DNA of 64,000 nt from a virus (Duplodnaviria; Caudoviricetes), in the IMG/VR virus record IMGVR_UViG_3300037454_000475, positions 41,291 to 105,290 of that record; one strand, given 5' to 3'. Position 1 is the first letter of the stretch; each line of letters opens with the position of its first letter. The notes beneath the pieces are model-generated. The model was not told where the DNA came from and did no database searches. It saw nothing but the letters and a program-made list of their open reading frames with translations. A program made the translations under genes and the position numbers. Shown piece after piece: positions 1 through 35,810 of this stretch.

Positions 1-104
1 TACGTGGGAACGTGTCCCACTTTCTATCTCTATTTATCTCGTGCTCGGAGTACGGAGCGAGCCCCTGTCGTTAATCACCATCCTTACCGTAAATGGCGAT
101 TTAG

Positions 105-192
105 TAGCGGGAGGAGGATTCGAACCTCCGACCTCCTTTTGGGAAGTACTGGCTTATGAGACCAGCGAGATAGTCCACTTCTCTACCCCGCG
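105..192 (-). tRNA. tRNA-Met(CAT), initiator-like, with a long variable arm
   Basis: Cloverleaf CGCGGGG...CTCATAA...GGTTCGAATCC; C1:U72 mismatch; 19-nt variable region with a hairpin. Confidence 0.8.
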
Positions 193-206
193 ATGTGTTT
201 TTAATG

Positions 207-363
207 TGGCCCCTCAAGGATTCGAACCTCGTACGCTTTCCAAAGCAGGGGCTCTTTGGAGTTTAATATCGAAAAACTCCTCGGGATCTAAAACGCATGA
301 CTTTCACATGATAGCCCAAGAGCTCTGTTGGGATATATAATAATCACCAGTCGTTAAGGGGCA
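207..363 (-). ncRNA. tRNA-framed RNA: acceptor stem and T-arm enclosing ~120 nt of hairpins
   Basis: GCCCCT/AGGGGC acceptor, CGAGG-TTCGAAT-CCTTG T-arm, four internal hairpins, no anticodon arm recognisable. Confidence 0.6.
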
Positions 364-389
364 ATTACTCCCTGTAGTTAGGTGAACTG

Positions 390-463
390 TGGTCCCGGGA
401 GGATTCGAACCTCCGACCTGCTGATTATGAGTCAGCTGCTCTAACCTGCTGCGCTACAAGACC
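390..463 (-). tRNA. tRNA-Ile2/Met (CAT)
   Basis: Canonical cloverleaf, GCTGA-CTCATAA-TCAGC; resembles lysidine-type Ile2. Confidence 0.85.
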
Positions 464-623
464 GAAGGATAATGTCCTTGTTTTCCGGCGAGAGGAGGCG
501 CTTTGCAAAGATTTTTGGACGTAATAACATCCAGTCCGGAGCTCCTCAAGGAACGGTATTATACGGTGCACCGAACGCAGATTTACATGGAATTAACCAA
601 TACGGCGTACAAGCGACATTATT

Positions 624-695
624 GCGGGGAGAACAGGATTCGAACCCATCTTATTTACGGCCTATGAACTTACTTTACCGGTATTAGCTCTTCCC
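624..695 (-). ncRNA. Degenerate tRNA-like element
   Basis: T-arm ATGGG-TTCGAAT-CCTGT and acceptor GGGAAGA/TCTCCCC; D and anticodon arms not canonical. Confidence 0.4.
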
Positions 696-774
696 GGTGT
701 TTCTTTTCAAATCCAACCTAACGGATAAAAGCCGGCCTCACGTTAGGAGCATCCCCAATATTTGTTTCCGGCAT

Positions 775-852
775 TGGTTGCGGGAACCGGATTCGAACCG
801 GTGTGGAACGGCTTATGAGACCGTGCTGGAACCATCTCCAGTCTATCCCGCA
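775..852 (-). tRNA. tRNA-Met(CAT)
   Basis: Cloverleaf, ACGGT-CTCATAA-GCCGT, encoded CCA. Confidence 0.85.
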
Positions 853-860
853 ATAAATAG

Positions 861-977
861 GTGCTTGGGTTGGACTCGCACCAACAACCTTCCGGTCTCA
901 TCCGGAGGCTCTACATAACCGCGGTGGTATTGATCAGATACCTGCTGACATCATGCCCCTATTTGAGCTACCAAGCT
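861..977 (-). ncRNA. tRNA-like RNA with ~53-nt D-loop and 6-nt anticodon loop
   Basis: GCTTGG/CCAAGC acceptor, GCTC/GAGC D-stem, TCCGG-ATGAGA-CCGGA, GTTGG-TGCGAGT-CCAAC. Confidence 0.65.
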
Positions 978-1500
978 ACGCATGTGCACTGCGCTTTTGA
1001 TTGTTTGGTGTATTAACGCCACACCGGCGTATTGGACGCCGATCAGATGACCGCATCGGCGCGCGGACTCTTGCTGTTAACGCAATAGTTGCAACGACCT
1101 TTCATGATTAGACTTTGCCTTCGTCGTCCCGGCGCCGTCCCTACTGGATCTGTTGGAGTCTGTCCCACTTCCGTTCCGTTCCTGTAAGAGTATCGAACAT
1201 CCGTGGTAAGCCGTCTTTCGGGAACCAAATATGTTTATCGCTTCCGGCATTGCATCGGCCCTCTCTTTGTGAATATATGGTCGTCTTTGGGCTTCTTGGC
1301 GGATTGGCTGGATGTTATCGCCTTTTCGGCCACGTGATCTTTCACAGCATCAGCGCCTTTCAATCCTGATGGTTTCCTGTTACATCGGGTGCCTATCATT
1401 TCAGCTACCTTTCATTTCGGCAGGAGTTAATTGAGGGGCGGACACGGGTCGGCCCAGGGCGGCAAAAGCCGCGGAATTACTCCACCCAGTTTAATCACAA

Positions 1501-1577
1501 TGGTGGACACAGAAGGGCTTCGAACCCTCGACCTCCTGACTGCCAGTCAGGCGTTCTACCAACTGAACTACTGGCCC
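1501..1577 (-). tRNA. tRNA-Ala(GGC)
   Basis: CCTGA-CTGGCAG-TCAGG, G3:U70, encoded CCA, one bulge in the acceptor stem. Confidence 0.85.
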
Positions 1578-1897
1578 ATAACATTCTCGGATGTTTTCTC
1601 CTTTATCTTATCACAAGACCAATTTCAGGTCAACTACCACTTGCAAATCTAACTCTTTGTTTGCGCGCGGGGAGGTTGTCGATCCTCCGTCTTCCGTGAA
1701 TGCTTTGATAAACACACTTCGGTTCTTTGTTGAGCTCGCGGATGGCATTTTATGGCTCCAATTCACCGGCGGGGTCATGACTCCCCAATGGCTGTCCGTT
1801 ATATTTCTATGGTTTAATCTTTCAACCTCCGAGGTCGTTCGGCGTTCCTCTGTAGGTTTTTTAATGCGCGCTAACCTACTTAATTATTGTGTGTTTG

Positions 1898-1970
1898 TCG
1901 GGTTAGGTGGGCTCGAACCACCGACCTATCGCGTATCAGGCGAGTGCTCTACCAACTGAGCTACAACCCG
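1898..1970 (-). tRNA. tRNA-Ile(GAT)
   Basis: Cloverleaf, loop CTGATAC. Confidence 0.9.
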
Positions 1971-2244
1971 GTGAGGCGGATGGAATCACTTCTTTCCGCC
2001 AATCTCATGGATACGACCAATCACTTTCCGTTTATTCGGTACTGTCAGGTGTTGGGTCGATTACTTCCACCACCCTACTGGCAGCGATCTCCTGATTTCA
2101 GCATATAGCAAACCGGTGAGTTTTGGGCCGCTTTCGGCCACGGGTGTGATTTAGTAACGTGAAATCGTATCCGTATATCTTTACCGCCCATTATACAAAG
2201 TTCCGTTCAGGTGGTTAACCATCCCTTCCAGCGATATGTGGCGG

Positions 2245-2320
2245 ATAAGAATCAATCAAATGTCTCCCAATATGTCAAAGAACGTTGTTCTTTGTTGTTG
2301 GAACCTTGTTCCTTCAACAC
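2245..2320 (-). promoter_or_regulatory. Leader with hairpin and boxA (GTTCTTTGACATATT), copy 1
   Basis: 39 nt identical to 9619-9657; directly downstream of a promoter. Confidence 0.7.
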
Positions 2321-2321
2321 C

Positions 2322-2353
2322 TATATATAATAAACACCGCTGATTTATTAACA
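2322..2353 (-). promoter_or_regulatory. Phage promoter TGTTAA-N18-TATATATA
   Basis: One of 7 copies with identical spacing. Confidence 0.75.
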
Positions 2354-2378
2354 AGGAAATTGAAAAAAAAATCGCTTG

Positions 2379-2449
2379 AGGCTCTTACTGGACTCGAACC
2401 AGTGTCTGTTGACTACGAAACAACTATTCTACCCCTAAACTAAAAAGCC
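2379..2449 (-). tRNA. tRNA-Thr(CGT)
   Basis: Cloverleaf, loop TTCGTAG. Confidence 0.8.
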
Positions 2450-2533
2450 ATGGACGGGGTTTTTGTTATTTTCTCATCGAGTGTTAGCCCCCGAAACTCA
2501 TAACTCGATAAAGTTGGGCGCTACCCAACACGC

Positions 2534-2606
2534 GGCGTATGTGCGGTGCTCGAACCCGCCAACAGGAGATTTGGTCCCCTCGCTCGCCATCTTGCGTTAC
2601 ATACTC
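2534..2606 (-). ncRNA. tRNA-like RNA with 5-nt anticodon loop
   Basis: GTATG/CATAC acceptor, AGGGGA-CCAAA-TCTCCT, GGTTCGAGC T-loop. Confidence 0.5.
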
Positions 2607-2692
2607 ATATGCGGTTAATTACTCCGCACGGGTACCCTCTCTTTCTCTTTCAATACCGCGTCCGATATTTACTCATACTCAAGTCAGGTCTG

Positions 2693-2773
2693 TACCCCGA
2701 GAGGGACTCGAACCCTCACCCTTTCGGACTGGGTTTTGAAGCCAGCGCGTCCTGCCAATTTCGCCACCGGGGT
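2693..2773 (-). tRNA. tRNA-Leu(CAA)
   Basis: Class II cloverleaf, loop TTCAAAA. Confidence 0.85.
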
Positions 2774-2951
2774 GTAAATAGGATTTCCTCTTATACTACC
2801 CATGAGGGAAACCCAAAAAGCTAACATGCACGTACACATACGATTACGTGACCCATCGGTGTCCCATATCCATCACCGAAGCGATGCACAGAGGGTGTGA
2901 GCAGCTGTACGATCCCAAGTACTGACCGGTACTTCGTTGGGCTTTCATGTC

Positions 2952-3911
2952 TTATATCTTCCCGTTAAACGGGTTCGGTATTCCGTAAATTTTGTAGATC
3001 AAATGATCATTTATATCAAATGGGTTACCATACAACTTCGAGTACCTAAATATGCAATCGTTCTTGTATTTTTCAAACATTTCATCGGTATAGGTAAGTT
3101 CCTTGTACTTCTCCCTAAAATCCATGGCAGCTTTCCAATCAAGATCCCGGATATCCTCAACCGGATCATCCATAACCGTTAACAAACCTTCAAAATAATT
3201 GAATGTGGAAGCTGATGTCAGTATATGTTTACCCATACAGATGTTCTCAAATATGCGAACCACATTTTGTGAAATTGCGGTATCCGATTCCGGGTTATGA
3301 GGTACGTCCAAAATAAATTTGGTGTTGTACACAACATCCTTGATTTCGTTGGGTCTCAATCCTTCGATACAATAAAATGACTTATCAATAAGTTTGATTT
3401 CATCAAAATATTTTTTTCTCGAACTTGATGCTTGACCAAAAAATCCAAGATTATAATCATAATCCCCGGAATTTCCGATGTGCTCTGATTGATTGTAAAA
3501 TCTTAATGGCATCCACTTGAGCTTGTTCCATTGATTTGGGAGGAGTTCCTTGTAATACTCAAAGGATTCCAGCCACAAAAGCCATATTTCATCAACATCC
3601 TGCAACCATTCATCTTCCATGTACGGCATAACCCAATACGGTGAATGTTCGGTTTCAAGTAATATCAACTTATTGTATCTCGCCTTTATTTCCTTGAGAT
3701 CGTACAAATTGATTGGTTGGGTTGGATATGGCTTTATGTCAAACGGAGCTTTTTTCGAATCAAACCGATCAATACATGGCCAATTGAATATGAGTGTCCC
3801 TTGTGGTTCGGTTTCATCATAGTGCTCAAGGATCATATCCCGAACGCTTGTGATATCCGAATTGAAGAATACACTAATATTTTTGCCACGTTGCAAATAG
3901 TTGATCTTCAT
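2952..3911 (-). CDS. Putative GT-B glycosyltransferase (319 aa) inserted in the tRNA array
   Basis: Start reassigned to MKINYL; C-terminal LGFFG..RKK / NTKFILDV / RIFENICMGK resembles CgeB/GT1-like domains. Confidence 0.55.
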   Translation of the reverse strand: MKINYLQRGKNISVFFNSDITSVRDMILEHYDETEPQGTLIFNWPCIDRFDSKKAPFDIKPYPTQPINLYDLKEIKARYNKLILLETEHSPYWVMPYMEDEWLQDVDEIWLLWLESFEYYKELLPNQWNKLKWMPLRFYNQSEHIGNSGDYDYNLGFFGQASSSRKKYFDEIKLIDKSFYCIEGLRPNEIKDVVYNTKFILDVPHNPESDTAISQNVVRIFENICMGKHILTSASTFNYFEGLLTVMDDPVEDIRDLDWKAAMDFREKYKELTYTDEMFEKYKNDCIFRYSKLYGNPFDINDHLIYKIYGIPNPFNGKI

Positions 3912-3928
3912 ATGTTTGCTTTTTATTG

Positions 3929-3997
3929 CACAACCTGTGAGGAATTGAACCTCAACCCCCGGCCGCGCCGGTGCTCTATACCGTGAGCTACAGGTGT
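3929..3997 (-). ncRNA. tRNA-like RNA with a 3-nt anticodon loop
   Basis: Normal D-arm GCTC/GAGC and T-arm; anticodon arm CCGGC-GCG-GCCGG. Confidence 0.65.
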
Positions 3998-4152
3998 ACT
4001 TCCGAATCGCACGGAATGCGGTTCCTTCAGGAGCCGGTAACTCTGTTTCCACCAGTTGGGTCAGGAACATACCCCCGCCTATTGCTACCAAGACGGCTAA
4101 TCCCTTCTCTTTTATATCGCCCGGTAGGGAACGTGCTATCACATGTGAAAAG

Positions 4153-4223
4153 TTGTCCCGTCGGGATTCGAACCCAAAATTACAGATCCAAAATCTGTCG
4201 TGTTACCGTTACACTACGAGACA
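4153..4223 (-). tRNA. tRNA-Gln(TTG)
   Basis: Cloverleaf, ACAGA-TTTTGGA-TCTGT. Confidence 0.9.
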
Positions 4224-4336
4224 ATAGTAACCCAACCTACCTCAACTTCTATTTTGCTTCATTGGCATCCTGAACCTCCGGAGAGTGGAACTTAAACCCT
4301 TTCACTGGTCTTTCAACCTTCTATCGGTTGGGTTTG

Positions 4337-4408
4337 TTGTTCTAACTGGATTCGAACCAATTCCTCCTGATCCAGGGTCAGGTGTACTACCGGATATACT
4401 ATGGAACA
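4337..4408 (-). tRNA. tRNA-Gln(CTG)
   Basis: CCTGA-CCCTGGA-TCAGG; C33 instead of U33. Confidence 0.8.
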
Positions 4409-4450
4409 ATCAACTTTGGTATAATATATGAAACCTTTACAAGAATTTCG

Positions 4451-4849
4451 TTATTCAACAATATTTATTCGGCAATTGCAGTTCTCATAAGATATCTTAC
4501 CATCTCCATTTTCAAGTATGTAATAATAATCATCCTGTGTTATTTCCAACCCTTTGAATCTGCATTGGTTGCCTCTGTGATCAATGACTTGTTTTCCAAG
4601 GTTATATTTCACATATTCACATATTGGCTTCATATTTCCGCATCCGGATCTTTCGATTTGTGAATCAACAAAATCTTCCGGTTTGGTAAGTTGAAGGCTG
4701 TAACCAATAGTGCTGAAATACGATGGAGTAAATAGTCCCAATCTTGTAAATATGCGGAACCATATACTTTCATACCAATCAAGCATCTGCTTTATGGATT
4801 TGAATCGTATTGTGTAATGAAATGGTAACCTTAAACGCATATACCGCAT
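4451..4849 (-). CDS. Hypothetical protein
   Basis: 132-aa AT-rich ORF between tRNAs. Confidence 0.65.
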   Translation of the reverse strand: MRYMRLRLPFHYTIRFKSIKQMLDWYESIWFRIFTRLGLFTPSYFSTIGYSLQLTKPEDFVDSQIERSGCGNMKPICEYVKYNLGKQVIDHRGNQCRFKGLEITQDDYYYILENGDGKISYENCNCRINIVE

Positions 4850-4866
4850 ATACCATATTTTATTTG

Positions 4867-4941
4867 CCCGAACGAACGGTTACGATCCGTCTATTTTACC
4901 GGAGTGACAGTCCGGTTCCTCACCAAGAGGCCTACGCTCGG
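4867..4941 (-). tRNA. tRNA-Asp(GTC), atypical T-loop
   Basis: CCGGA-CTGTCAC-TCCGG; T-loop ATCGTAA. Confidence 0.75.
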
Positions 4942-5000
4942 ATAGAACCACGCTTTATTTTTGTCATTGTATGATGAAGCATGGGTGAACATCACATGCG

Positions 5001-5156
5001 TGGGTATGGGTGGAATTGAACCTTGAACAACGCCGTTACTCCTGTCTTACTTGCCGCGGATTTTCGTACAGTTTCTCAACGCCGTAAACCTAACCCTCTA
5101 AATAAGAGGAACCTCCCTCACTGGAGGCCCCGCTACCGTTACGGGGTTACATACCC
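5001..5156 (-). ncRNA. tRNA-Tyr-like frame with anticodon arm replaced by a ~95-nt multi-hairpin insert
   Basis: GGGTATG/CATACCC acceptor, CCCCGTAACGGTAGCGGGG D-arm, GGTTCAATTCC. Confidence 0.6.
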
Positions 5157-5162
5157 ATATGT

Positions 5163-5236
5163 TGGCAGGGGTGGATGGAATCGAACCACCAACTACGGTT
5201 TTGGAGACCGGCATTATACCGTTTAACTACACCCCT
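5163..5236 (-). tRNA. tRNA-Trp(CCA)
   Basis: Loop CTCCAAA, encoded CCA. Confidence 0.9.
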
Positions 5237-5330
5237 ATACGTGTACCATTCACCATGTTCGAACGGTACCAATGTCACCACAACTCTATTGTTTCACCAT
5301 TATGTCCGGAGCGGTGGGAGAAGACACGCG

Positions 5331-5403
5331 TGGGAAGGAGTGGAGTCGAACCACTATCTTCGGATTTTCAGTCCGCCGCATAGACCTGCTTTGCTACCTT
5401 CCC
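5331..5403 (-). tRNA. tRNA-Phe(GAA)
   Basis: Loop CTGAAAA. Confidence 0.9.
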
Positions 5404-5410
5404 ATATATG

Positions 5411-5493
5411 CGGAGAGCAGAGGAATCGAACCTCATACGTTGCCGTACACACAATTTAGCAGAATGGTTCCTTGCCTGAAGGATTTACTCTCC
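5411..5493 (-). tRNA. tRNA-Ser(GCT)
   Basis: Class II, loop CTGCTAA, weak anticodon stem. Confidence 0.75.
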
Positions 5494-5502
5494 ATTAAGA
5501 AA

Positions 5503-5781
5503 AAACCGAGTAAGAATTGATGATCACGAAGACCTCGAATTACATGGCGAGCTACGGACTGGAGAAACGGCGGCTGGTTACGCCGATTGCATTACCACGT
5601 AGGGTTTTACCTCCTGTTGCGTTGCGCGTATGGCTCCTCACGGACAAGACCCTTTCGGGGTACCAACACTCTTCACGGAGCTGACGGTCTGCCTTCGGCT
5701 ACCGGCGCCTACATGCACGCTTATTCCGGAATTACACGTACACTTACCTCCGACACTACTGGGTGGCCCTATACTCGGTTT
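5503..5781 (-). ncRNA. Candidate ~280-nt structured RNA
   Basis: Closed by a perfect 10-bp stem AAACCGAGTA/TACTCGGTTT; internal GNRA hairpins (CCCC-GAAA-GGG, CTCC-GTGA-AGAG). Confidence 0.5.
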
Positions 5782-5799
5782 AACCGAATGAACGGTTTG

Positions 5800-5876
5800 T
5801 GGAGCAGATGACGGGGTTCGAACCCGCAAACCTCCTGCTTGGCAAGCAGGCTATCTACCAATTGATATACATCTGC
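5800..5876 (-). tRNA. tRNA-Gly(GCC)
   Basis: CCTGC-TTGCCAA-GCAGG, encoded CCA. Confidence 0.9.
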
Positions 5877-6061
5877 ATGGATGCAAGTCGCTAACGTTCT
5901 CTCGAAACCTCACTTGCGAACCCGGCCGTGGTTCATGGTTTTGGCTGATCTACCTCCTCACAGCTGGCGCCCGGATTATATGGCAAATCCGGGTTAGCCC
6001 CGTTTTACTCCGCCGGGAAGCACTTATTGTCTCCGGCCCCCGGTCGCTTAACGGTACAGCG

Positions 6062-6143
6062 TTGGAAGGGAGGGATTCGAACCCCCGAACCCAATGGGAG
6101 TGGATTTACAGTCCACCGCGTTTAACCACTTCGCTACCTTCCA
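6062..6143 (-). tRNA. tRNA-Tyr(GTA)
   Basis: GTGGA-CTGTAAA-TCCAC, class II. Confidence 0.9.
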
Positions 6144-6286
6144 ATGTTTGGAACTAATGAAGCTGTGTCAACTTTCATTCTTCATCCGAGTTAAAGAATT
6201 ATCTGTCATTTAACTAATGTGACCATTGTATTCAAGGCGCCCGGCCACTATCCTCGGTTTTTGTACTTCATGTCATTGTCCCATTG

Positions 6287-6382
6287 TGCCGCCGGTAGGG
6301 CTCGAACCTACTTACTGCTAAAGTCCACTACGAAAATTTGTTAAAGCAGATCGGTTTTACAGACCGGTTCCGTTACGTCGGC
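6287..6382 (-). ncRNA. D-armless tRNA(GTA)-like RNA with ~39-nt variable arm
   Basis: 8-nt connector instead of D-arm; CGGT-CTGTAAA-ACCG; CTGCT/AGCAG variable stem; GTAGG-TTCGAGC-CCTAC. Confidence 0.65.
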
Positions 6383-6427
6383 ATTATAATAACTCCCATA
6401 TTACTTGGCTGTATACCCTATAGGAAC

Positions 6428-6489
6428 GTGCGTTGTTTGGAGTCGAACCAAATTCAGTAACAGCATCACTTGACAAATGCTTCGCGCAC
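6428..6489 (-). ncRNA. Mini tRNA-like element lacking an anticodon arm
   Basis: GTGCG/CGCAC ends, GCAT/ATGC hairpin, TTTGG-TTCGACT-CCAAA. Confidence 0.5.
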
Positions 6490-6523
6490 TACCTTTCCAG
6501 TTTATACAGCATGAAAGGAATTG

Positions 6524-6595
6524 AGCCGATGGAGGGATTCGAACCCCCGACCAACTGATTACAAAACAGTAGCGCTACCACTGCGCCACATCGGC
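6524..6595 (-). tRNA. tRNA-Thr(TGT)
   Basis: Loop TTTGTAA. Confidence 0.9.
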
Positions 6596-6602
6596 TTATC
6601 TG

Positions 6603-6676
6603 TCTCCCTGGAGGGACTCGAACCCCCAACCTTATGATCCGTAGTCATGCGCTCTATCCAATTGGGCTACAGGGAG
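6603..6676 (-). tRNA. tRNA-Arg(ACG)
   Basis: Loop CTACGGA. Confidence 0.9.
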
Positions 6677-6764
6677 GAGTTTGAAGAGTTACTACGCTAC
6701 CCTTCGAAGCTGTTCCAACGGTGCCTTATCAGGCAGCGATGGCCATTTTTGATCTATTGCCGTT

Positions 6765-6850
6765 TGGCGGAGAATTGAGGTATCGATCCCCATACAGAAT
6801 GTACAGCACGTTTTCAAGACGGCTCCCCTCACCATCAGGGTTAATTCTCC
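6765..6850 (-). tRNA. tRNA-Ser(TGA)
   Basis: Loop CTTGAAA, class II, encoded CCA, T-loop ATCGATA. Confidence 0.8.
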
Positions 6851-6949
6851 AATGGAGCCGCTTTCGAGTGATCCCGGACACTACCCCGGCGGGCGCGGCA
6901 TACCCATATGTGTTTGTGCGATTGTATCCTATAAAAGGTGGGTGAGAAC

Positions 6950-7250
6950 TACGCCCTCACCCGTGGCTGTGCTTCGGTGCCTAACTTTAGGCAGCGATAG
7001 CCATTTCAGTACGTGCGCCAGTTATTGCGCGGACACCATCTCTTTTGTTCCTTCGGCCGCTGTCAAAACCAAACACCCCCATATGAGAAGGTTTATACGA
7101 TACCTACAAACGTTTGGGGACACCGTATGGCATCGATCCACCACCGATTTTTACGAAATCGGAAACGTCTTTAATTGGCGAAAGAGTGGAGGTGACGGGA
7201 GTCGAACCCGTGTCCAAACGGATTATCTAACAAAATACAAACGATTGTGC
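6950..7250 (-). ncRNA. ssrA: Circularly permuted (two-piece) tmRNA; tag (A)GARTEMAIAA at 7019-6987
   Basis: Acceptor piece ending GGACACGGGTTCGACTCCCGTCACCTCCA (7187) lies upstream of 5' piece GGGGGTGTTTGGTTTTGACAGCGG (7080); 7-bp acceptor stem with G3:U; outer limits approximate. Confidence 0.9.
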
Positions 7251-7254
7251 CATG

Positions 7255-7328
7255 CGGTGTTGAAGGGGCTCGAACCCTCGACCTCCGCCGTGACAGGGCG
7301 GCATTCTAACCAGCTGAACTACAACACC
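7255..7328 (-). tRNA. tRNA-Asp(GTC)
   Basis: Canonical, CCGCC-CTGTCAC-GGCGG. Confidence 0.95.
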
Positions 7329-7451
7329 ATATAGAAATCCAACTCAAAAATCCGTAGACGTGGGGGTGAAAAAGGAAAGGAGGTGACCCACAAGCCGTTC
7401 GTTCGGCATCGGATTAAAACCTGTTGGATACTGCGGACGCAGTGGTTTTTG

Positions 7452-7524
7452 CGGGATCAGAAGGAATCGAACCTTCAACCTACGGATTAACAGTCCGGTG
7501 CTCTACCGATTGAGCTATGAACCC
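7452..7524 (-). tRNA. tRNA-Asn(GTT)
   Basis: Loop CTGTTAA. Confidence 0.9.
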
Positions 7525-7584
7525 ATATTTTGCAGATTTTATTGTCAGCTGGTAACGTCTGCAAACCTTACTGACAACCTTTCG

Positions 7585-7658
7585 CGGGGGAGGTGGGGAT
7601 CGAACCCACGACCATGTGCTTAACGGGCACCCGCTACGACCAACCGAGCTCCTCCCCC
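7585..7658 (-). tRNA. tRNA-Asn(GTT), C33 variant
   Basis: Loop CCGTTAA. Confidence 0.75.
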
Positions 7659-7669
7659 ATTATTAAAAG

Positions 7670-7742
7670 TACCACCGGTGGGATTCGAACCCACAACCTC
7701 ACGGTTAAGAGCCGCGAGCTCTGCCAATTGAGCTACGGAGGT
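7670..7742 (-). tRNA. tRNA-Lys(CTT)
   Basis: Loop CTCTTAA. Confidence 0.9.
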
Positions 7743-7822
7743 ATGATGATCGGATATTGTAGCATTAGGTACAAGTGCACCCTGAGGCATGTTTCACCTC
7801 GGATCTCGGCATATCCGATTTG

Positions 7823-7895
7823 TGCTCCCGGTGGGACTCGAACCCACAACTCCCACATTAAAAGTGTGGTACTCTGCCAGTTGAGTTACGAAAGC
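7823..7895 (-). tRNA. tRNA-Lys(TTT)
   Basis: CCACA-CTTTTAA-TGTGG. Confidence 0.9.
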
Positions 7896-7946
7896 CTACT
7901 GTTTACCTGATTTGTCGTCTTCCACGACAGTGCGTTTTCGTCTCAT
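7896..7946 (-). CDS. 16-aa mini-ORF MRRKRTVVEDDKSGKQ abutting tRNA-Lys
   Basis: A-rich leader, ATG; stop codon directly precedes tRNA nucleotide 1; paralog at 8055-8114. Confidence 0.5.
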   Translation of the reverse strand: MRRKRTVVEDDKSGKQ

Positions 7947-7988
7947 GTTATTAATTTTTTATTTGTTTCAGTTTAAGTGTGACTTAAT

Positions 7989-8064
7989 TGGTGCTCCCGC
8001 AGGGACTCGAACCCTGAACTCCCGGAGTAAAAGTCCGGTACTCTACCAATTAAGTTACGAGAGC
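7989..8064 (-). tRNA. tRNA-Lys(TTT)
   Basis: CCGGA-CTTTTAC-TCCGG, encoded CCA. Confidence 0.9.
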
Positions 8065-8114
8065 CAACGTTTACCTGATTTACCGTCCTTTACGGCTTTA
8101 CGTTTTCGTCTCAT
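8055..8114 (-). CDS. 19-aa mini-ORF MRRKRKAVKDGKSGKRWLS overlapping the tRNA-Lys 5' end
   Basis: Paralog of 7896-7946 with conserved frame. Confidence 0.5.
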   Translation of the reverse strand: MRRKRKAVKDGKSGKRWLS

Positions 8115-8551
8115 AGCTTAAATGTTTATTTGATTGTTGTTCGCCCTTTAATTAAAAACACCCTACGAACGTTGTACTCGGCAACCTCGGATATTGTGGA
8201 GGGCCCATCCACGGTTTTGACCAGCTAAAGTTTGATGGTGCTTGGTATCCCAATCTCCACTTGCTCGCCTGCGGATGGCGGATGCCGCTGTGGCCCGGCA
8301 ACTGGCAACGGAGTACCCATCCGATCAGGGCCGTGCTGTTCCTTGGCCAACACGGATACCATTTAGACCTCCAATAGTTATCGAAACCTGAAGTATCCAC
8401 CTACCATCAGGGGAAGTTTGCAACCTTCCCGGGAATCCAGTTTCAACCTCCCGTCCTTTACACCACCTCGCGCATTTCACGGATCAGCCTTCTCCGGAGT
8501 TGCCTTCGCTCTCACGGCCGCGTGGTTCCACGGATTGGAGTATTGTTTCTG

Positions 8552-8719
8552 TGATCTCGGTGGGAGTTGAACCCACATTACCATAATCGTTTGCTTTACC
8601 ACTGCAATGGTGGGGCGACTAACACGCGTTGTCGCGCTGTCCTCCCCCAAACTTTCAGGTACTACCACTATATCCCAGTGTGAATCTGTTGCAGCATCAT
8701 CTCTTTGGAGTACGAGACC
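8552..8719 (-). ncRNA. tRNA-framed RNA with ~130-nt internal domain
   Basis: GGTCTCG/CGAGATC acceptor, GTGGG-TTCAACT-CCCAC T-arm. Confidence 0.6.
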
Positions 8720-8730
8720 TTTTAAATATG

Positions 8731-8867
8731 CACCAAGACGAGGATTCGAACCTCGGCCTCAATGTCCTCTCGGGCATTGTATTCTGTCCTCTTTCCATCG
8801 TGGCAACTCCGGCCGGCTGTACAACCAGCTTATTGGTCTTACCACGACTTCATCTAACTACCTTGAT
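8731..8867 (-). ncRNA. tRNA-like RNA with expanded D region and a GAGA tetraloop in place of the anticodon loop
   Basis: ATCAAGG/TCTTGGT acceptor, CAATGCCC-GAGA-GGACATTG, CGAGG-TTCGAAT-CCTCG. Confidence 0.65.
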
Positions 8868-9051
8868 TGATTGATTATTTCCCTCACTCATCAACCGGTG
8901 GTGATTCGCGACTCACCACCCGACCCTATTTGCCGGTTCAAACTCTACCGGTGTCGGCTGATTACGTTACGCGGGAGAAGCTACCTCCCTGGAAGGTACT
9001 CTACCTTCCCAAACAGAATTGTTTGTTATGAATGAGTTATTTCCTCAACTT

Positions 9052-9124
9052 GTGGATTGGTGGGATTCGATACCCACATCACGCGGTTGCATACGACCGG
9101 AATATTACTTATACTTACAATCCA
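9052..9124 (-). ncRNA. Degenerate tRNA-like element
   Basis: TGGATTG/CAATCCA acceptor, GTGGG-TATCGAAT-CCCAC; irregular anticodon arm. Confidence 0.5.
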
Positions 9125-9430
9125 TCGGCCTCGAGATTACCATACGTTTCTCCTGTTGGCTGTGCACACCAACAACTCCCCTACGGACGCCATCCTCTGT
9201 ACTCTGTTGACTTTCGGTTTACTGCAGCACCTACATGGTCCAACGTTTCCGTGACTTTACGCGACTGGCTCTTGTGAGAAGACCTCGTTATTATCGGACG
9301 CTTTTGCATCGATTCTTTGTCCGATTGCCTCTTAACCTTGTGTTACGCCTGTGTTCCGGTGGCCGGAGTGGTATCTCCCAATCGAGCTTTTGTACCACTG
9401 CTAACACTGCTCTGAAGAGATTCAAACTTG

Positions 9431-9503
9431 AGCGAAGAATGGGACTCGAACCCACGATCTCGACCTTGGCAAGGTCATATTCTACCAACTGAACTACCTT
9501 CGC
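9431..9503 (-). tRNA. tRNA-Gly(GCC)
   Basis: GACC-TTGCCAA-GGTC. Confidence 0.9.
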
Positions 9504-9618
9504 ACCGTGGGGAGGCGATATCTCATCTACCTCCCCGTATATCTTGATCAGCCTTTGACCCACGGTTAATATTCCAGTGAAGGGCAAACCGCATATTATT
9601 TCAGGTTGTTTCGGCTGA

Positions 9619-9702
9619 ATAAGAATCAATCAAATGTCTCCCAATATGTCAAAGAACCCTTGTTTTATGTTGGTTGGAACGTTTTATCGTTCCTTTCAAC
9701 GT
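9619..9702 (-). promoter_or_regulatory. Leader with hairpin and boxA, copy 2
   Basis: 39 nt identical to 2245-2283. Confidence 0.7.
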
Positions 9703-9703
9703 C

Positions 9704-9735
9704 TATATATAATCAACCTCCTGCGAAACTTAACA
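9704..9735 (-). promoter_or_regulatory. Phage promoter TGTTAA-N18-TATATATA
   Basis: Recurrent motif, heads the tRNA array. Confidence 0.75.
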
Positions 9736-9801: not shown

Positions 9802-9833
9802 AAAAAAGGTCATCCGTTTTTGCGAATGACCTT
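9802..9833 (-). terminator. Intrinsic terminator, possibly part of an attenuator
   Basis: AAGGTCATTCG/CGGATGACCTT hairpin followed by a U-run. Confidence 0.7.
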
Positions 9834-10122: not shown

Positions 10123-11178
10123 TTATTCACGGGTGATCGTTGCGCACCTTGAAAGCTCAACAGTGTCATAGGCATCCAACTTCGTGGTAACCTGAATGTT
10201 GGTATACCCATTCTGCTCAAGGATGGCTTTCACTGCGGCGGCACGGGCGTTAGCCAAATCGGAGTTGTAATTCTCGGTTCCGGTCTTCGTATCGGCGGAT
10301 CCAACAATCACGATGTTGGCGTTCTTGTCAACATTGGCCATAAAGATATCCAAACGCTGCATCTCCGTGGTAGTAATGGTTGAGCTATTCTTTGCGAAGG
10401 TAAGAAGTGTGTTGTTGGTGTTCACCTCAACAATCTTCTCAACAATCTTTTCGACAATAACGGTATCTCTCTCCACCTCACGGTTCATACATCTCATGCA
10501 TTCATCGTACATGGTGTAAAGCTCCGAGTATTGCTGGTCGGTATACGTCTTATCGCAGATCACGAAGTTATGGGAACCGGTCTTATTTGACTTAAATCGA
10601 TAAGCCACGCCGATGTTGGCCTGAAGATCCGCATGCTTTACCATTGGTTCGATGTGACGGGACTGGAGGATTTCGTGAGATACGACTTGAGGTGTAAACG
10701 TAATGTACCAAGCGCGTTCTTTACCTAAATTGAAATCAAATTCGAGGCCGGCGTTCAATGATATATCGTTGGGGTTACTTGAGTTGAACATATGATCCCA
10801 TCCGATACCGGTTACGGTTTGAATTTCAAAAATCCTTGGTTGGCCTTTGTACCCGGCAAACAAATTCATTAGGTTGAACTTGACGTTTCCGTTCAAATTC
10901 GTTGCACTGATGGCAAAACCGTCCTCGAAGTTAGGTCTCATGTATCCAACCAACGAAAACCCGGTGATAGGGGTAACGTTCTTGCCAAGTTCAAGACCGG
11001 CGTTCCAGTCCAAGGTATTGAACTCAAAATTATCGTAGTTGGAAACAGGGTTGTGAATGGCACCGCCATTGATGCCAACATACATGTTGGAAAAAACACC
11101 ACCGCGTTCAACGGTTTGAGCATTTGTGATTGTGAAAGCCATAAACAAGGCGATCATCAAAGAAATAATTTTCTTCAT
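10123..11178 (-). CDS. OmpA-family outer membrane protein (Bacteroidales type)
   Basis: Signal peptide, beta-barrel, C-terminal GSADTKTG..YN..LA.ARA.AV OmpA domain. Confidence 0.9.
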   Translation of the reverse strand: MKKIISLMIALFMAFTITNAQTVERGGVFSNMYVGINGGAIHNPVSNYDNFEFNTLDWNAGLELGKNVTPITGFSLVGYMRPNFEDGFAISATNLNGNVKFNLMNLFAGYKGQPRIFEIQTVTGIGWDHMFNSSNPNDISLNAGLEFDFNLGKERAWYITFTPQVVSHEILQSRHIEPMVKHADLQANIGVAYRFKSNKTGSHNFVICDKTYTDQQYSELYTMYDECMRCMNREVERDTVIVEKIVEKIVEVNTNNTLLTFAKNSSTITTTEMQRLDIFMANVDKNANIVIVGSADTKTGTENYNSDLANARAAAVKAILEQNGYTNIQVTTKLDAYDTVELSRCATITRE

Positions 11179-32771: not shown

Positions 32772-33641
32772 TTATACACCACGTTTGTCGCCCCACAAAC
32801 GGATATGAAGGCGATCGGCGAACCTCCAGCCTCGTTCGATACAAACCTTGGCGGCTTCGAGGCCGTTTTTGTTGATTTGATCGGCTGTAACACCTTCGGG
32901 CATCAACATGATATCTTCGGGATATATGGTTTTACCCATCTTACGGAGGGTGTCCACTAACTCATCGATATCCTTCACTGATTCCGGGCCGGAGTAGACG
33001 AACTTCAATTGGAAATCCTGCATATCCATCATGGCTGCAATAGCATCGGGATTGTAGCGGGTCTTGTTGAGTTTTTCAACTTCAGCCTTTGTGAAGGTTT
33101 TCGATACCACCTTACCATCATGTGTGTAGTAATATGGTTTGTCGGGAACCGGCATTGAAGTTGACAGCTTGGGCGAAATGCTGTACAAATCAACAACTTG
33201 CTTGATTGGGCCGAAAGTGCCGTTTGTTTCAATGGTGATACGATAATCCATATCGTTTATACATCCAATGTATTCGATAAGATCATCAAGTTCCTCACCG
33301 AACATTAACGGTTCTCCGCCGGTAAAAACGATGTCAATGATATTTGGGTTCTTTTGAAGCATGGTGACCACGTCATCCTTACTGTATTTGCCCTTTTCCG
33401 GGCTAAATGAGGAGTATGCGGTGTCACACACGGTGTTCTTAAAGCAACAACGAAGGTTGCATCCGGATATCCTAACGAACAGGCTGGGCATACCAACGTA
33501 TTTACCTTCACCCTGGAGTGAGACAAATAAGTCAACAATGTTGAGTCTATCACACAAACGTGCGAGTTCTTCCGGTTCCTTATTACGTCTCTTCACTGGG
33601 GTTGACATGTCCAGTTCTTCGTGTTTTTCGTGTTTTTTCAT
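32772..33641 (-). CDS. queE: 7-carboxy-7-deazaguanine synthase (radical SAM)
   Basis: F.SLQGEG..VG.PS.FVR.SGCNLRC...CDT, TGGEP, IETNG, SPKL, RLH..LW. Confidence 0.92.
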   Translation of the reverse strand: MKKHEKHEELDMSTPVKRRNKEPEELARLCDRLNIVDLFVSLQGEGKYVGMPSLFVRISGCNLRCCFKNTVCDTAYSSFSPEKGKYSKDDVVTMLQKNPNIIDIVFTGGEPLMFGEELDDLIEYIGCINDMDYRITIETNGTFGPIKQVVDLYSISPKLSTSMPVPDKPYYYTHDGKVVSKTFTKAEVEKLNKTRYNPDAIAAMMDMQDFQLKFVYSGPESVKDIDELVDTLRKMGKTIYPEDIMLMPEGVTADQINKNGLEAAKVCIERGWRFADRLHIRLWGDKRGV

Positions 33642-33656
33642 ACTGTGGAACTTTTT

Positions 33657-34286
33657 TTATCTCCAGTCGTTATCTTGACCTGTAGGATTTGCTTTTACCT
33701 GATTGTACGGCGAATATTCCGGGTTAATGGTTGCGTTGGGGTTTGCAAGAAGGAGAGCGAGGTCTCCACTGATATCCTCCTTGACGGCATCACTCAAACC
33801 AATGCGGTAGAAGTTGTTCTTATCCCACATGGTATCAAGATCCGCCTCGCAACAATGAGCGTATCCGGATTCGGTTTCATGGTAGATAACACCACAACAA
33901 TGAAGATTCTTATCTTCGCCATTGATCTTGGCTGTGTGACGGATGATGTGGTTGATCGCGTCCATGAAGAATAACGAAAGCATCTCGGCTGTTGGATTGA
34001 ATGGAAGGGCAATCCAGCGATCACTGTCGGAAATGATATTGCTGATATAACTGGGGTCATCCTTATCCCAATACACAAAACAGTGATCGAACATATCGAT
34101 GAACTGTTTGACCGTACCTTTCATCAAACCAAAATCATAAAGCATTCCTGCCTTGTCAAGGTGTGTACCTTCGAGAAGAACCTCGATGACCGCACTATGA
34201 CCATGCATTGAATGCGAGCAACGTTTGGATGAACAATTACGGACGATATGTCCCATTTCCACCCTGTACTTTTTGCGTATAATCAT
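33657..34286 (-). CDS. queD: 6-carboxytetrahydropterin synthase
   Basis: H......C...HGHS, G..YDFG..K, FDH, NPTAE; adjacent to queE. Confidence 0.9.
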   Translation of the reverse strand: MIIRKKYRVEMGHIVRNCSSKRCSHSMHGHSAVIEVLLEGTHLDKAGMLYDFGLMKGTVKQFIDMFDHCFVYWDKDDPSYISNIISDSDRWIALPFNPTAEMLSLFFMDAINHIIRHTAKINGEDKNLHCCGVIYHETESGYAHCCEADLDTMWDKNNFYRIGLSDAVKEDISGDLALLLANPNATINPEYSPYNQVKANPTGQDNDWR

Positions 34287-34332
34287 TTTGTTGTACTTTA
34301 ATTTAATTAATATATTAAAGGTCAAAGTAAGT

Positions 34333-34842
34333 TTACTTGTATGCCTTAACCGTGGTAGCGATCACGCTGTTTTCTGCATCCGGGTACTTTTCCTTGACCT
34401 TGGCGATGATATCCTTCATAAATGGCATGATGTTACCATTGAAGGCGTGGTCTGTCATAGCCTTAATCTTGAGGAAATTTTCAACCACACACTTGGTTTC
34501 CTCCTCGATCTGTTCCTTCGTAGGGCCTTTAGCTGAATCCGGGAGAAGACTGAAAATGATATCAGCTTCCCCGAGTTCATCAGCGGCACGCTGTTGCTCA
34601 CCGGCGTTTTTATAGATGTCAGCGGCTTTCTTGCGTTTGGCGATCATATCTTTCAGGATGGCAATTTCCTGATCGTCAGTAGGGATGTGGGTGGCATTAT
34701 ATCCGGCAGTTGCAAGCTCGGTTTTGACTGCACGGAATACCTCGAGGGTTATCTTGATACTTTCCTCCTCGATCAAATTGCTTGCGTGTGCTTTGTCCTT
34801 GATTGCGTTTGCAATCAATTCGTCAATTTTTTCGTGAATCAT
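34333..34842 (-). CDS. GatB/YqeY domain protein
   Basis: A.KDK, R.VK.E, IL...I.KR..A...Y..AG, E..E..I...LLP. Confidence 0.85.
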   Translation of the reverse strand: MIHEKIDELIANAIKDKAHASNLIEEESIKITLEVFRAVKTELATAGYNATHIPTDDQEIAILKDMIAKRKKAADIYKNAGEQQRAADELGEADIIFSLLPDSAKGPTKEQIEEETKCVVENFLKIKAMTDHAFNGNIMPFMKDIIAKVKEKYPDAENSVIATTVKAYK

Positions 34843-34854
34843 GGTTGTTTTGTT

Positions 34855-35151
34855 TTATTTGGTTATTTCATCTGTGTATTTGTTGATAGGTGTTGCATTT
34901 TTCCATACCTCTTGAGGGGTAAGTCCGAGATCCGGTCTGTACCAAAGGGGGTTCACGGTGACCACCTGATGTACAGTGATATGTCCATCTTCTTCAAGAT
35001 GGCAATGAACATTTACATTGGTCACTGTATTTGGACCTCCCCAAAAATCGAAGATATCACCAAGCGAGAACTTCCAGTCAATTGGGAACTGCCCAATGAT
35101 GTAGGTTTGGTGTGTTTCGGGATCATCCCATCTGAATTGTACAACGTTCAT
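34855..35151 (-). CDS. Hypothetical protein
   Basis: ATGA overlap with the sigma gene. Confidence 0.6.
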   Translation of the reverse strand: MNVVQFRWDDPETHQTYIIGQFPIDWKFSLGDIFDFWGGPNTVTNVNVHCHLEEDGHITVHQVVTVNPLWYRPDLGLTPQEVWKNATPINKYTDEITK

Positions 35152-35810
35152 AGCAGATCCTCCAATTCTTCGCAAAGAGCCTCATCACTACGGATGGCAG
35201 CAATGATACGTTGATTGACGTAAGTGATTGCCGCGCTGGACACCTTGTACTGTTTTGCGATCTGCGTGCGGGGGACATCATCCTGCTCACCCAAGCCGAA
35301 TGTTTGGAAGAAAATATCCGTATCCCGTTTTGAAAAACGGCTTGACACAAAGATACGGATGTGTTCCAATGCAGCCCCAACGGAAATCTTATCCGGGTCT
35401 ACGGAAGGTTCCGGAATATTCCAGTGTTCATCACCATCCGAATCCGTCTTGGAAACGATTGGTTGATAAATGTAGGTGGGGCGACCTTCGGCCTTGGCCT
35501 TCTTCTGTTGATAGTTTGAGAAGGTTACGATGTGGCCCTCACGGTTGGTACCGTTCATGATGAAGTAATAAATACGGTATGCCGCATACTGGAGGAATGA
35601 CTGACCGGAATCCGGCTTGTAAGTATTCATGGCGTCTGCCAATCCTTCAAAACCGAAGCCGATGATGTCATCGTAAGTCAACGGGGTTTTGTCCTTGTTT
35701 TGGTTAGCAATCTTGTAGACCAACGGTGTATACTGGCGAGCATACTCTTCGCGTTCTGCCTGTGTGGTTGGTCGGTGAAACTGAATACTTTGGTTTCCCT
35801 TTTTATTCAT
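35148..35810 (-). CDS. Sigma-70 family sigma factor
   Basis: Region 2 (LV.KIA, DII..G..GL..A...Y.P..G.SF..YA...I) and region 4 HTH. Confidence 0.85.
   Translation of the reverse strand: MNKKGNQSIQFHRPTTQAEREEYARQYTPLVYKIANQNKDKTPLTYDDIIGFGFEGLADAMNTYKPDSGQSFLQYAAYRIYYFIMNGTNREGHIVTFSNYQQKKAKAEGRPTYIYQPIVSKTDSDGDEHWNIPEPSVDPDKISVGAALEHIRIFVSSRFSKRDTDIFFQTFGLGEQDDVPRTQIAKQYKVSSAAITYVNQRIIAAIRSDEALCEELEDLL

Follow-up and report, generated by a model that had tools for sequence, protein, structure and literature searches.

The virus record IMGVR_UViG_3300037454_000475 (Duplodnaviria; Caudoviricetes) contains a long array of transfer RNA (tRNA) genes in which two leaders carry an identical element of 39 nucleotides (nt) beginning with the boxA sequence of ribosomal RNA (rrn) operons. 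We consider it likely that these two cassettes are mimics of rrn operons, framing a 15.6-kilobase (kb) untranslated array of tRNA, transfer-messenger RNA (tmRNA) and non-coding RNA genes as pre-23S rRNA is framed, with antitermination of the host type. The window analysed, 64,000 nt long, corresponds to G000:C1:41291-105290 of the IMG/VR virus record, which totals 105,290 nt (43% G+C; CheckV completeness 58%); positions given without a prefix are those of the window. The main array comprises 38 tRNA genes and a permuted tmRNA, all on the minus strand, between genome positions 50,793 and 35,152; its in-window part (104..9503, minus strand) holds 23 of the tRNAs and the permuted tmRNA, and the remainder runs to G000:C1:35152, outside the window. 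Literature searches that combined boxA with phage tRNA arrays, with leader-trailer helices or with Bacteroides gave no description of such an arrangement, and the way large phages transcribe kilobases of ribosome-free tRNA arrays despite Rho is not addressed in the literature searched. Copied onto a phage tRNA block, the host rRNA solution, boxA with a leader-trailer frame, would provide a mechanism for the expression of phage tRNAs.

Two leaders and the boxA of Bacteroidota 23S rRNA

As the preliminary description of this DNA had it, the 39-mer is repeated: it has exactly two occurrences, both on the minus strand (copy A at 2283..2245, copy B at 9657..9619), against no match in 100 shuffles. 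Each copy opens with the boxA core GUUCUUUGACAU (2283..2272 and 9657..9646). The first 15 nt, GTTCTTTGACATATT, were scanned in one genome per prokaryotic species. Among the matches listed, Bacteroidota names are borne by about 83 of 120 genome loci of the exact 15-mer; of 121 exact genomic matches, 48 have the 5' end of a 23S gene 36-246 nt further downstream on the same strand. In seven loci, Rfam puts the 15-mer between the spacer tRNA-Ala and 23S. The phage element and the boxA of the Bacteroidota 16S-23S spacer are identical at 15 of 15 nt. Bacteroidota are the likely hosts of the phage. By contrast, the 16S-leader boxA of the same Bacteroidota genomes reads GTTCTTTGAAAATATT or GATCTTTGAAAGTTT, unlike the phage element, and hence the phage copies the 23S-leader version. 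The preliminary description had proposed a match to Bacteroidetes rrn leaders, and had named the lack of a match to host rrn boxA among the things that would tell against its reading; the 15-mer did match Bacteroidota rrn boxA, at the 16S-23S spacer that constitutes the 23S leader, but not at the 16S leader. It had also taken the 39-mer as a boxA cassette, yet boxA proper covers only about 12 nt, and what remains of the conserved core forms one side, the leader strand, of a long-range helix that had escaped notice. Host tRNA operons were rejected as the copied model, with just two non-rrn genomic matches, among those listed, having downstream tRNAs.

As for the function of such sequences, the boxA of B. 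subtilis, AUGAUCUUUGAAA, for which NusB binding was shown, contains a CUUUGA core, to which the experimentally defined E. coli boxA, UGCUCUUUAACA, is related (PMC13753749). This core is kept in the boxA variants of two relatives of the phage, G004 and G005, considered below.

Upstream, each 39-mer is found 38-46 nt downstream of ATTATATATAG, which belongs to a bipartite promoter-like motif (GTTAA, 16-17 nt, then ATTATATATAG). The 105-kb record has nine copies of the motif, each of them on the minus strand, against none in 200 Markov simulations. Seven of the nine have a start codon within some 20-45 nt, and only two are followed by a hairpin and the 39-mer: those heading untranslated tRNA operons. 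Motif A (2321..2352, minus strand; GTTAA at 2352..2348, a spacer, ATTATATATAG at 2331..2321) is internal to the array, with tRNA-Thr(cgt) and a T9 run ahead of it. Motif B (9703..9734, minus strand; GTTAA at 9734..9730, a 16-nt spacer, ATTATATATAG at 9713..9703) is invariant in the alignment of four leaders presented below. Between motif and boxA, in the boxB position, stands a two-tier 5' hairpin with an outer GUUG/CAAC stem and an inner stem that reads GGAAC/GUUCC in leader A (2294..2318, minus strand) and GGAACG/CGUUCC in leader B (9669..9700, minus strand), where minimum free energy and centroid folds agree. A small hairpin directly before boxA, as expected of rrn-type boxA, is present in all four aligned leaders.

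Those four leaders, two paralogous and two orthologous, were brought together by a metagenome scan that yielded two contigs of a related phage (82-88% DNA identity), with the orthologue of leader A in L242 and that of leader B in L243. A stretch of 21 nt, GTTCTTTGACATATTGGGAGA (2283..2263 in leader A, 9657..9637 in leader B), is invariant, as are the promoter elements, amid flanks that are about 60-88% identical. The hairpin is kept throughout, with a compensatory change in L242 from GGAAC/GUUCC to GGAAU/AUUCC. The succession of promoter, hairpin and 39-mer noted earlier is confirmed. After the 21-nt core, 10-13 nt diverge between the two leaders of the relative, and (A/T)TCTTAT is then conserved again. 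Only 21 nt being invariant there, the full 39-nt identity is particular to the present genome. Three related lineages had usable leaders, one of them with both leader and trailer. The annotated 'phages' collection contained no near-identical phage, the viral contig search gave no contig with the first 20 nt of the 39-mer, and a search for relatives via the prohead protease alone returned none.

A helix between the leaders and the end of the array

Bases 8-26 of the 39-mer (2276..2258 in leader A, 9650..9632 in leader B) pair with 20 nt starting directly after the last tRNA of the array, tRNA-Gly tcc, which lies outside the window. This trailer strand (G000:C1:35151-35132, minus strand, equivalent to L241:15732-15751) is directly 3' of the CCA of that tRNA, with an intrinsic terminator downstream (G000:C1:35097-35066, minus strand). 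In 21 kb of minus-strand transcript the top complement to leader A is G000:35151-35136, the 16 nt that directly follow the last tRNA. The duplex of GACAUAUUGGGAGA-c-AUUU with AAAU-u-UCUCCCAAUAU-u-GUC has 18 base pairs (bp) and an energy of -21.6 kcal/mol, against -12.3 +/- 3.2 for shuffled leaders. Since both leaders hold the same pairing segment, either can be joined to the one trailer, in a loop of 8.4 or of 15.8 kb; the need of both to fit a single trailer would explain why the 39-mer copies are identical over the paired segment.

Relatives for a further test of the helix were found via the gene adjoining the trailer. In G004, whose neighbouring protein is 71% identical, the same promoter motif and the same GGAAC/GUUCC hairpin precede a boxA variant, GAACTTTGACACACTGG, and the leader ACACACUGGU ... 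CAAAUAGGAGAAGAA pairs with UUCUUCUCUAUUUG-AA-ACCAGUGUGU directly after the last tRNA. This helix reaches -36.3 kcal/mol against -23.0 +/- 4.2, a value equalled in 4 of 1000 shuffles. It differs from that of the present phage by compensatory changes, AUAUU to ACACU in the leader and AAUAU to AGUGU in the trailer, and here too there are two leader copies, with identical tails. Beyond these relatives, the unrelated contig L128 has a perfect 15-bp helix, GACAUAUUGGAAAAA/UUUUUCCAAUAUGUC, located 4 nt after the last of 18 tRNAs, and another unrelated contig, L140, an 11-bp helix.

The same design is found in the presumed model. In five of six Bacteroidota loci tested the pre-23S leader-trailer helix includes boxA GACATATT, at -36 to -49 kcal/mol, well under shuffled leaders; in the sixth it begins 11 nt into the 15-mer. 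The phage thus shares with the Bacteroidota rrn operon the 15-nt sequence, the hairpin upstream of it, and a helix that starts in the 3' half of boxA (GACAUAUU) and pairs directly past the last gene of the unit. The spacer boxA of rrn operons is paralleled by the internal second cassette of the phage. Where the rrn operon frames 23S, the phage frames 38 tRNAs along with a tmRNA and further RNAs; it differs also in its phage-specific promoter, in having two leader copies for one trailer, and in an extra local stem-closed domain.

How general this association may be was explored in viral contigs. The exact 15-mer is present in 117 others, from which 23S is absent at the 15-mer loci; same-strand tRNAs lie within 2.5 kb downstream in 47 of them, opposite-strand tRNAs in none, and a reversed-pattern control had tRNAs downstream in 1 of 119. 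In nine of the 47 the first tRNA begins 26-30 nt after the boxA start, and the arrays count up to 16 tRNAs. The proteobacterial boxA, TGCTCTTTAACAATT, stands ahead of tRNA arrays in five of 114 contigs. Two were read in detail, and both have a promoter element of sigma-70 type: in L458, TTGACA-N17-TAGAAT and a hairpin come before boxA, and in L416 a TAGAAT -10 element and a hairpin do. The variant of boxA follows the phylum of the host; this speaks for a host ligand and would make boxA a sequence-based marker of host phylum for uncultured phages. Among 98 non-redundant contigs, 12 have the canonical Bacteroidota -7 motif TAnnTTTG within 60 nt upstream of viral boxA, the control figure being 3 of 77 (p = 0.06), so that we make no claim that most viral boxA copies are promoter-proximal. 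No boxA of E. coli type was found in Xanthomonas phage XacN1.

Several further arrays are worth recording. The proteobacterial boxA stands directly before 3-24 tRNAs in the viral contigs L381, L416, L458 and L471, which may be easier experimental systems. The boxA-led array of an unrelated 185-kb phage contig (L232) likewise holds a permuted tmRNA. A family of gut viral contigs has an RNA, assigned by Rfam to DUF2693-FD (75 bits; L137:5097-5171), that ends 11 nt before the 15-mer and could be the hairpin portion of a leader with boxA.

A proposed role of host antitermination in phage tRNA expression

The following course of events is proposed. Host core RNA polymerase, probably directed by a phage sigma factor, would start at the two GTTAA-N16/17-TTATATATAG promoters. 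In the nascent RNA a small hairpin would fold at the place of boxB, followed by the exposure of boxA, in a form identical to that of the host 23S leader, to which host NusB-S10, NusG and NusA would bind, creating a fast, Rho-resistant antitermination complex of the rrn type. With this complex, transcription would continue across 7-16 kb of RNA without ribosome protection. The segment GACAUAUUGGGAGAcAUUU, which overlaps and follows boxA, would then pair with the trailer as it emerges directly after the last tRNA, in a leader-trailer helix resembling the RNase III stem of pre-23S rRNA and possibly cleaved in the same way, and the intrinsic terminator would act 35-85 nt later.

The window indeed codes for a 220-residue protein (35148..35810, minus strand) that matches phrog_351, 'RNA polymerase sigma factor' (E 1e-13), and scores 22.4 bits against Pfam Sigma70_r2, slightly below the 24-bit cut-off; it likely reads the phage-specific promoter motif. 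No match to a T7-type RNA polymerase was obtained in the 58% of the genome at hand, which is weak evidence as the positive control of the same search was also empty. With a phage sigma factor present and no such match, host core polymerase carrying the phage sigma factor is the likely enzyme. NusB was not detectable among the proteins encoded by the 58%-complete record; the family is present in the control genome of Bacteroides thetaiotaomicron.

Known uses of boxA place this proposal in context. The rrn antitermination system (PMC10250234) has the same succession of promoter, hairpin, boxA and helix leader strand, and the same role of protecting a long untranslated transcript; in the phage, by contrast, boxA is the Bacteroidota variant, known here from sequence, and no factor requirement is known for that phylum. 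Outside rRNA, boxA is described at lambda nut, suhB and CRISPR arrays (PMC5725501, PMC13753749, PMC7862264). The gammaproteobacterial CRISPR and suhB elements sustain RNA polymerase on RNA with little or no translation, as would that of the phage; these are host genes without a leader-trailer frame, whereas in the phage a virus uses the host signal. At lambda nut a phage employs boxA and host Nus factors, as proposed here, but boxA comes before boxB and the phage N protein is required, while here the hairpin precedes boxA as in rrn. A lambda-type nut site was rejected for this reason, on the order of the elements, no search for an N homologue having been made.

In the looping model of rrn transcription, boxA stays on the polymerase until the trailer emerges (PMC10250234). 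As the phage helix covers the 3' half of boxA, one may speculate that its formation could release NusB-S10 and restore termination. A bolder view, which we hold only tentatively, is that phage tRNA arrays in several bacterial phyla are full mimics of pre-rRNA, with a host-matched boxA and an overlapping helix, and that the helix at the end of the array strips off NusB-S10, switching antitermination off just before the terminator. If this were true, Rho would stand as an obstacle that phages with tRNA genes must generally overcome. Phage arrays would also form a natural system in which to follow the roles of boxA and of the leader-trailer helix apart from ribosome assembly.

To be sure, several observations weigh against the reading of the array as an rrn mimic. 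The helix has modest significance in this genome alone: with 85-nt flanks the test is not significant (312 of 1000 shuffles), so that the case for it rests on its position and on covariation in relatives. The distant relative G005 is without a significant helix, though its array holds three boxA variants, the first directly after a canonical TAccTTTG promoter. In leader A (2275-2293, minus strand), boxA GUUCUUUG and a directly preceding CAAAGAAC are able to form 8 bp with a 3-nt loop, a pairing that might occlude the 5' half of boxA; it is also possible in L242, and leader B is without it. Transcription start sites are placed from the promoter-like motif, the strand and position of boxA fitting a transcribed leader. 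Literature searches gave no experiment on boxA in any Bacteroidota, and the host element is thus assigned by homology and position. The 15-mer further occurs 15 times in a repeat of Bacteroides oleiciplenus resembling an insertion sequence (G003; L364-L377, L379), where it precedes, by about 25 nt, a promoter-like TATATCTTTG and a start codon that belong to the repeat itself; not every copy of the 15-mer, therefore, is a boxA. Finally, a record that is 58% complete leaves room for an RNA polymerase or a Nus-like factor of the phage's own.

Four other explanations were weighed. The conserved segment could be only the leader strand of a processing helix of RNase III type, excising or stabilising the array, its likeness to boxA having no role in elongation. 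The helix does overlap the 3' half of boxA, covariation supports the pairing, and in E. coli the leader-trailer helix outweighs boxA for 30S biogenesis (PMC10250234); yet the 5' half, GUUCUUU, is outside the helix and nonetheless invariant in all four leaders of the lineage, the CUUUGA core survives in the diverged G004 and G005, and most of the arrays tested that have boxA 26-30 nt before the first tRNA are without a significant helix. We hold this explanation to be unlikely. It is quite improbable that the segment acts as DNA, or binds a phage protein (a repressor, an activator or an N-like factor) in place of host Nus factors: the promoters are of a phage-specific class, and annotation is lacking for many proteins of the phage, but the exact match with the host element and the agreement of boxA with host phylum in proteobacterial phages favour a host ligand, and the hairpin is placed before boxA as in rrn and unlike lambda nut. 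The RNA might otherwise serve mainly as a decoy that titrates NusB-S10 off host rRNA operons and aids host shut-off. Such a role would suit the identity to host boxA, the two copies behind strong-looking phage promoters and the possible release of the leader by processing at the local stem; against it, the link to tRNA arrays, specific in orientation and position, and the pairing with the trailer point to a role in cis, and we regard it as highly improbable in itself, a decoy effect alongside the cis role being one that could occur. That the motif is a passive, functionless remnant of host rRNA-spacer DNA captured with tRNA genes is scarcely credible, for although the host spacer has tRNA-Ile and tRNA-Ala beside boxA and operon A opens with these two tRNAs, similarity to the spacer stops after about 20 nt, the phage order of boxA then tRNAs is opposite to that of the host spacer, and the motif sits behind phage-specific promoters in two paralogous leaders, is invariant amid diverging flanks and recurs in unrelated phages.

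Local structures and genomic setting

Downstream of the boxA core, the end of the 39-mer enters a local domain; in copy B, UCUUAU at 9624..9619 opens its closing stem. Leader A has this domain at 2171..2252 (minus strand; AUUCUUAU-CCGCC ... GGCGG-UA-AAGAUAUACGG, closed by UCUU-AU-CCGCC...GGCGG-UA-AAGA) and leader B at 9535..9626 (minus strand; AUUCUUAU ... AAGAUAUACGG, closed by UCUU-AU-UCAGCC...GGCUGA-UC-AAGA), with inner helices that differ between the two. Independent folds of leaders A, B and L243 give the same closing stem, in agreement with the stem-closed domain and shared end that had been noticed after the 39-mer. More widely, a 60-90-nt domain closed by UCUUAU.../...AGAUAUA(C/G)GG keeps its position and flanking motifs across three phage lineages, its interior being different in each; a third site lies on the reverse strand of L515 at about 4250-4325, and the flanking motifs are present in the relative G004. 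Neither leader matched a known family in Rfam.

Another hairpin comes before the first tRNA of each operon. In operon A, GGCGGA...UCCGCC (1975..2000, minus strand) directly precedes tRNA-Ile (1970..1897), itself followed by tRNA-Ala; in operon B, a hairpin at 9509..9536 (minus strand) precedes tRNA-Gly gcc (9503..9430), and L243 has a hairpin of other sequence in the same place. Just before promoter B, a terminator-like hairpin with a T6 run, of the intrinsic type (9802..9831, minus strand), ends the upstream gene (10123-11178), and a related phage has the same terminator-like element upstream of its array head. The T9 run between operon B and promoter A (2371..2363, minus strand), directly 3' of tRNA-Thr(cgt), is missing in L242 and is therefore not a conserved terminator.

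The permuted tmRNA lies inside the array at 6896-7276 (minus strand; Rfam tmRNA_permuted, 63 bits), with GARTEMAIAA as the tag called by ARAGORN. Between the called tRNAs, on the minus strand, there are T-arm-like GGxTCGAACC segments (205-230, 620-648, 868-897, 2544-2563, 5406-5434, 6285-6312, 6763-6851, 8550-8588, 8726-8754 and 9059-9088) for which neither ARAGORN nor Rfam made a tRNA call; one of them, at 6768-6851, scored 33.7 bits as tRNA-Sec, under the cut-off. They resemble tRNA-shaped non-canonical RNAs. Two open reading frames (ORFs) are embedded in the array. One, of 396 residues (2952-4142, minus strand), is without Pfam or PHROG match, and about 977 nt of it (G000:44240-45216) are missing from L242, making this region an insertion or deletion between close relatives. 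The other, outside the window, is a GH16-like ORF of 257 residues (G000:C1:37015-37788, minus strand; Pfam Glyco_hydro_16, E 5e-10).

The record is that of a myovirus-type phage, encoding a tail sheath-like protein, an S77 prohead protease and a Pif1 helicase. The sigma factor gene adjoins genes for a QueE-like radical SAM protein, a QueD-like 6-pyruvoyl-tetrahydropterin synthase and a YqeY-like protein (32772-34842, minus strand), a neighbourhood that suggests a modification of the 7-deazaguanine or queuosine type.

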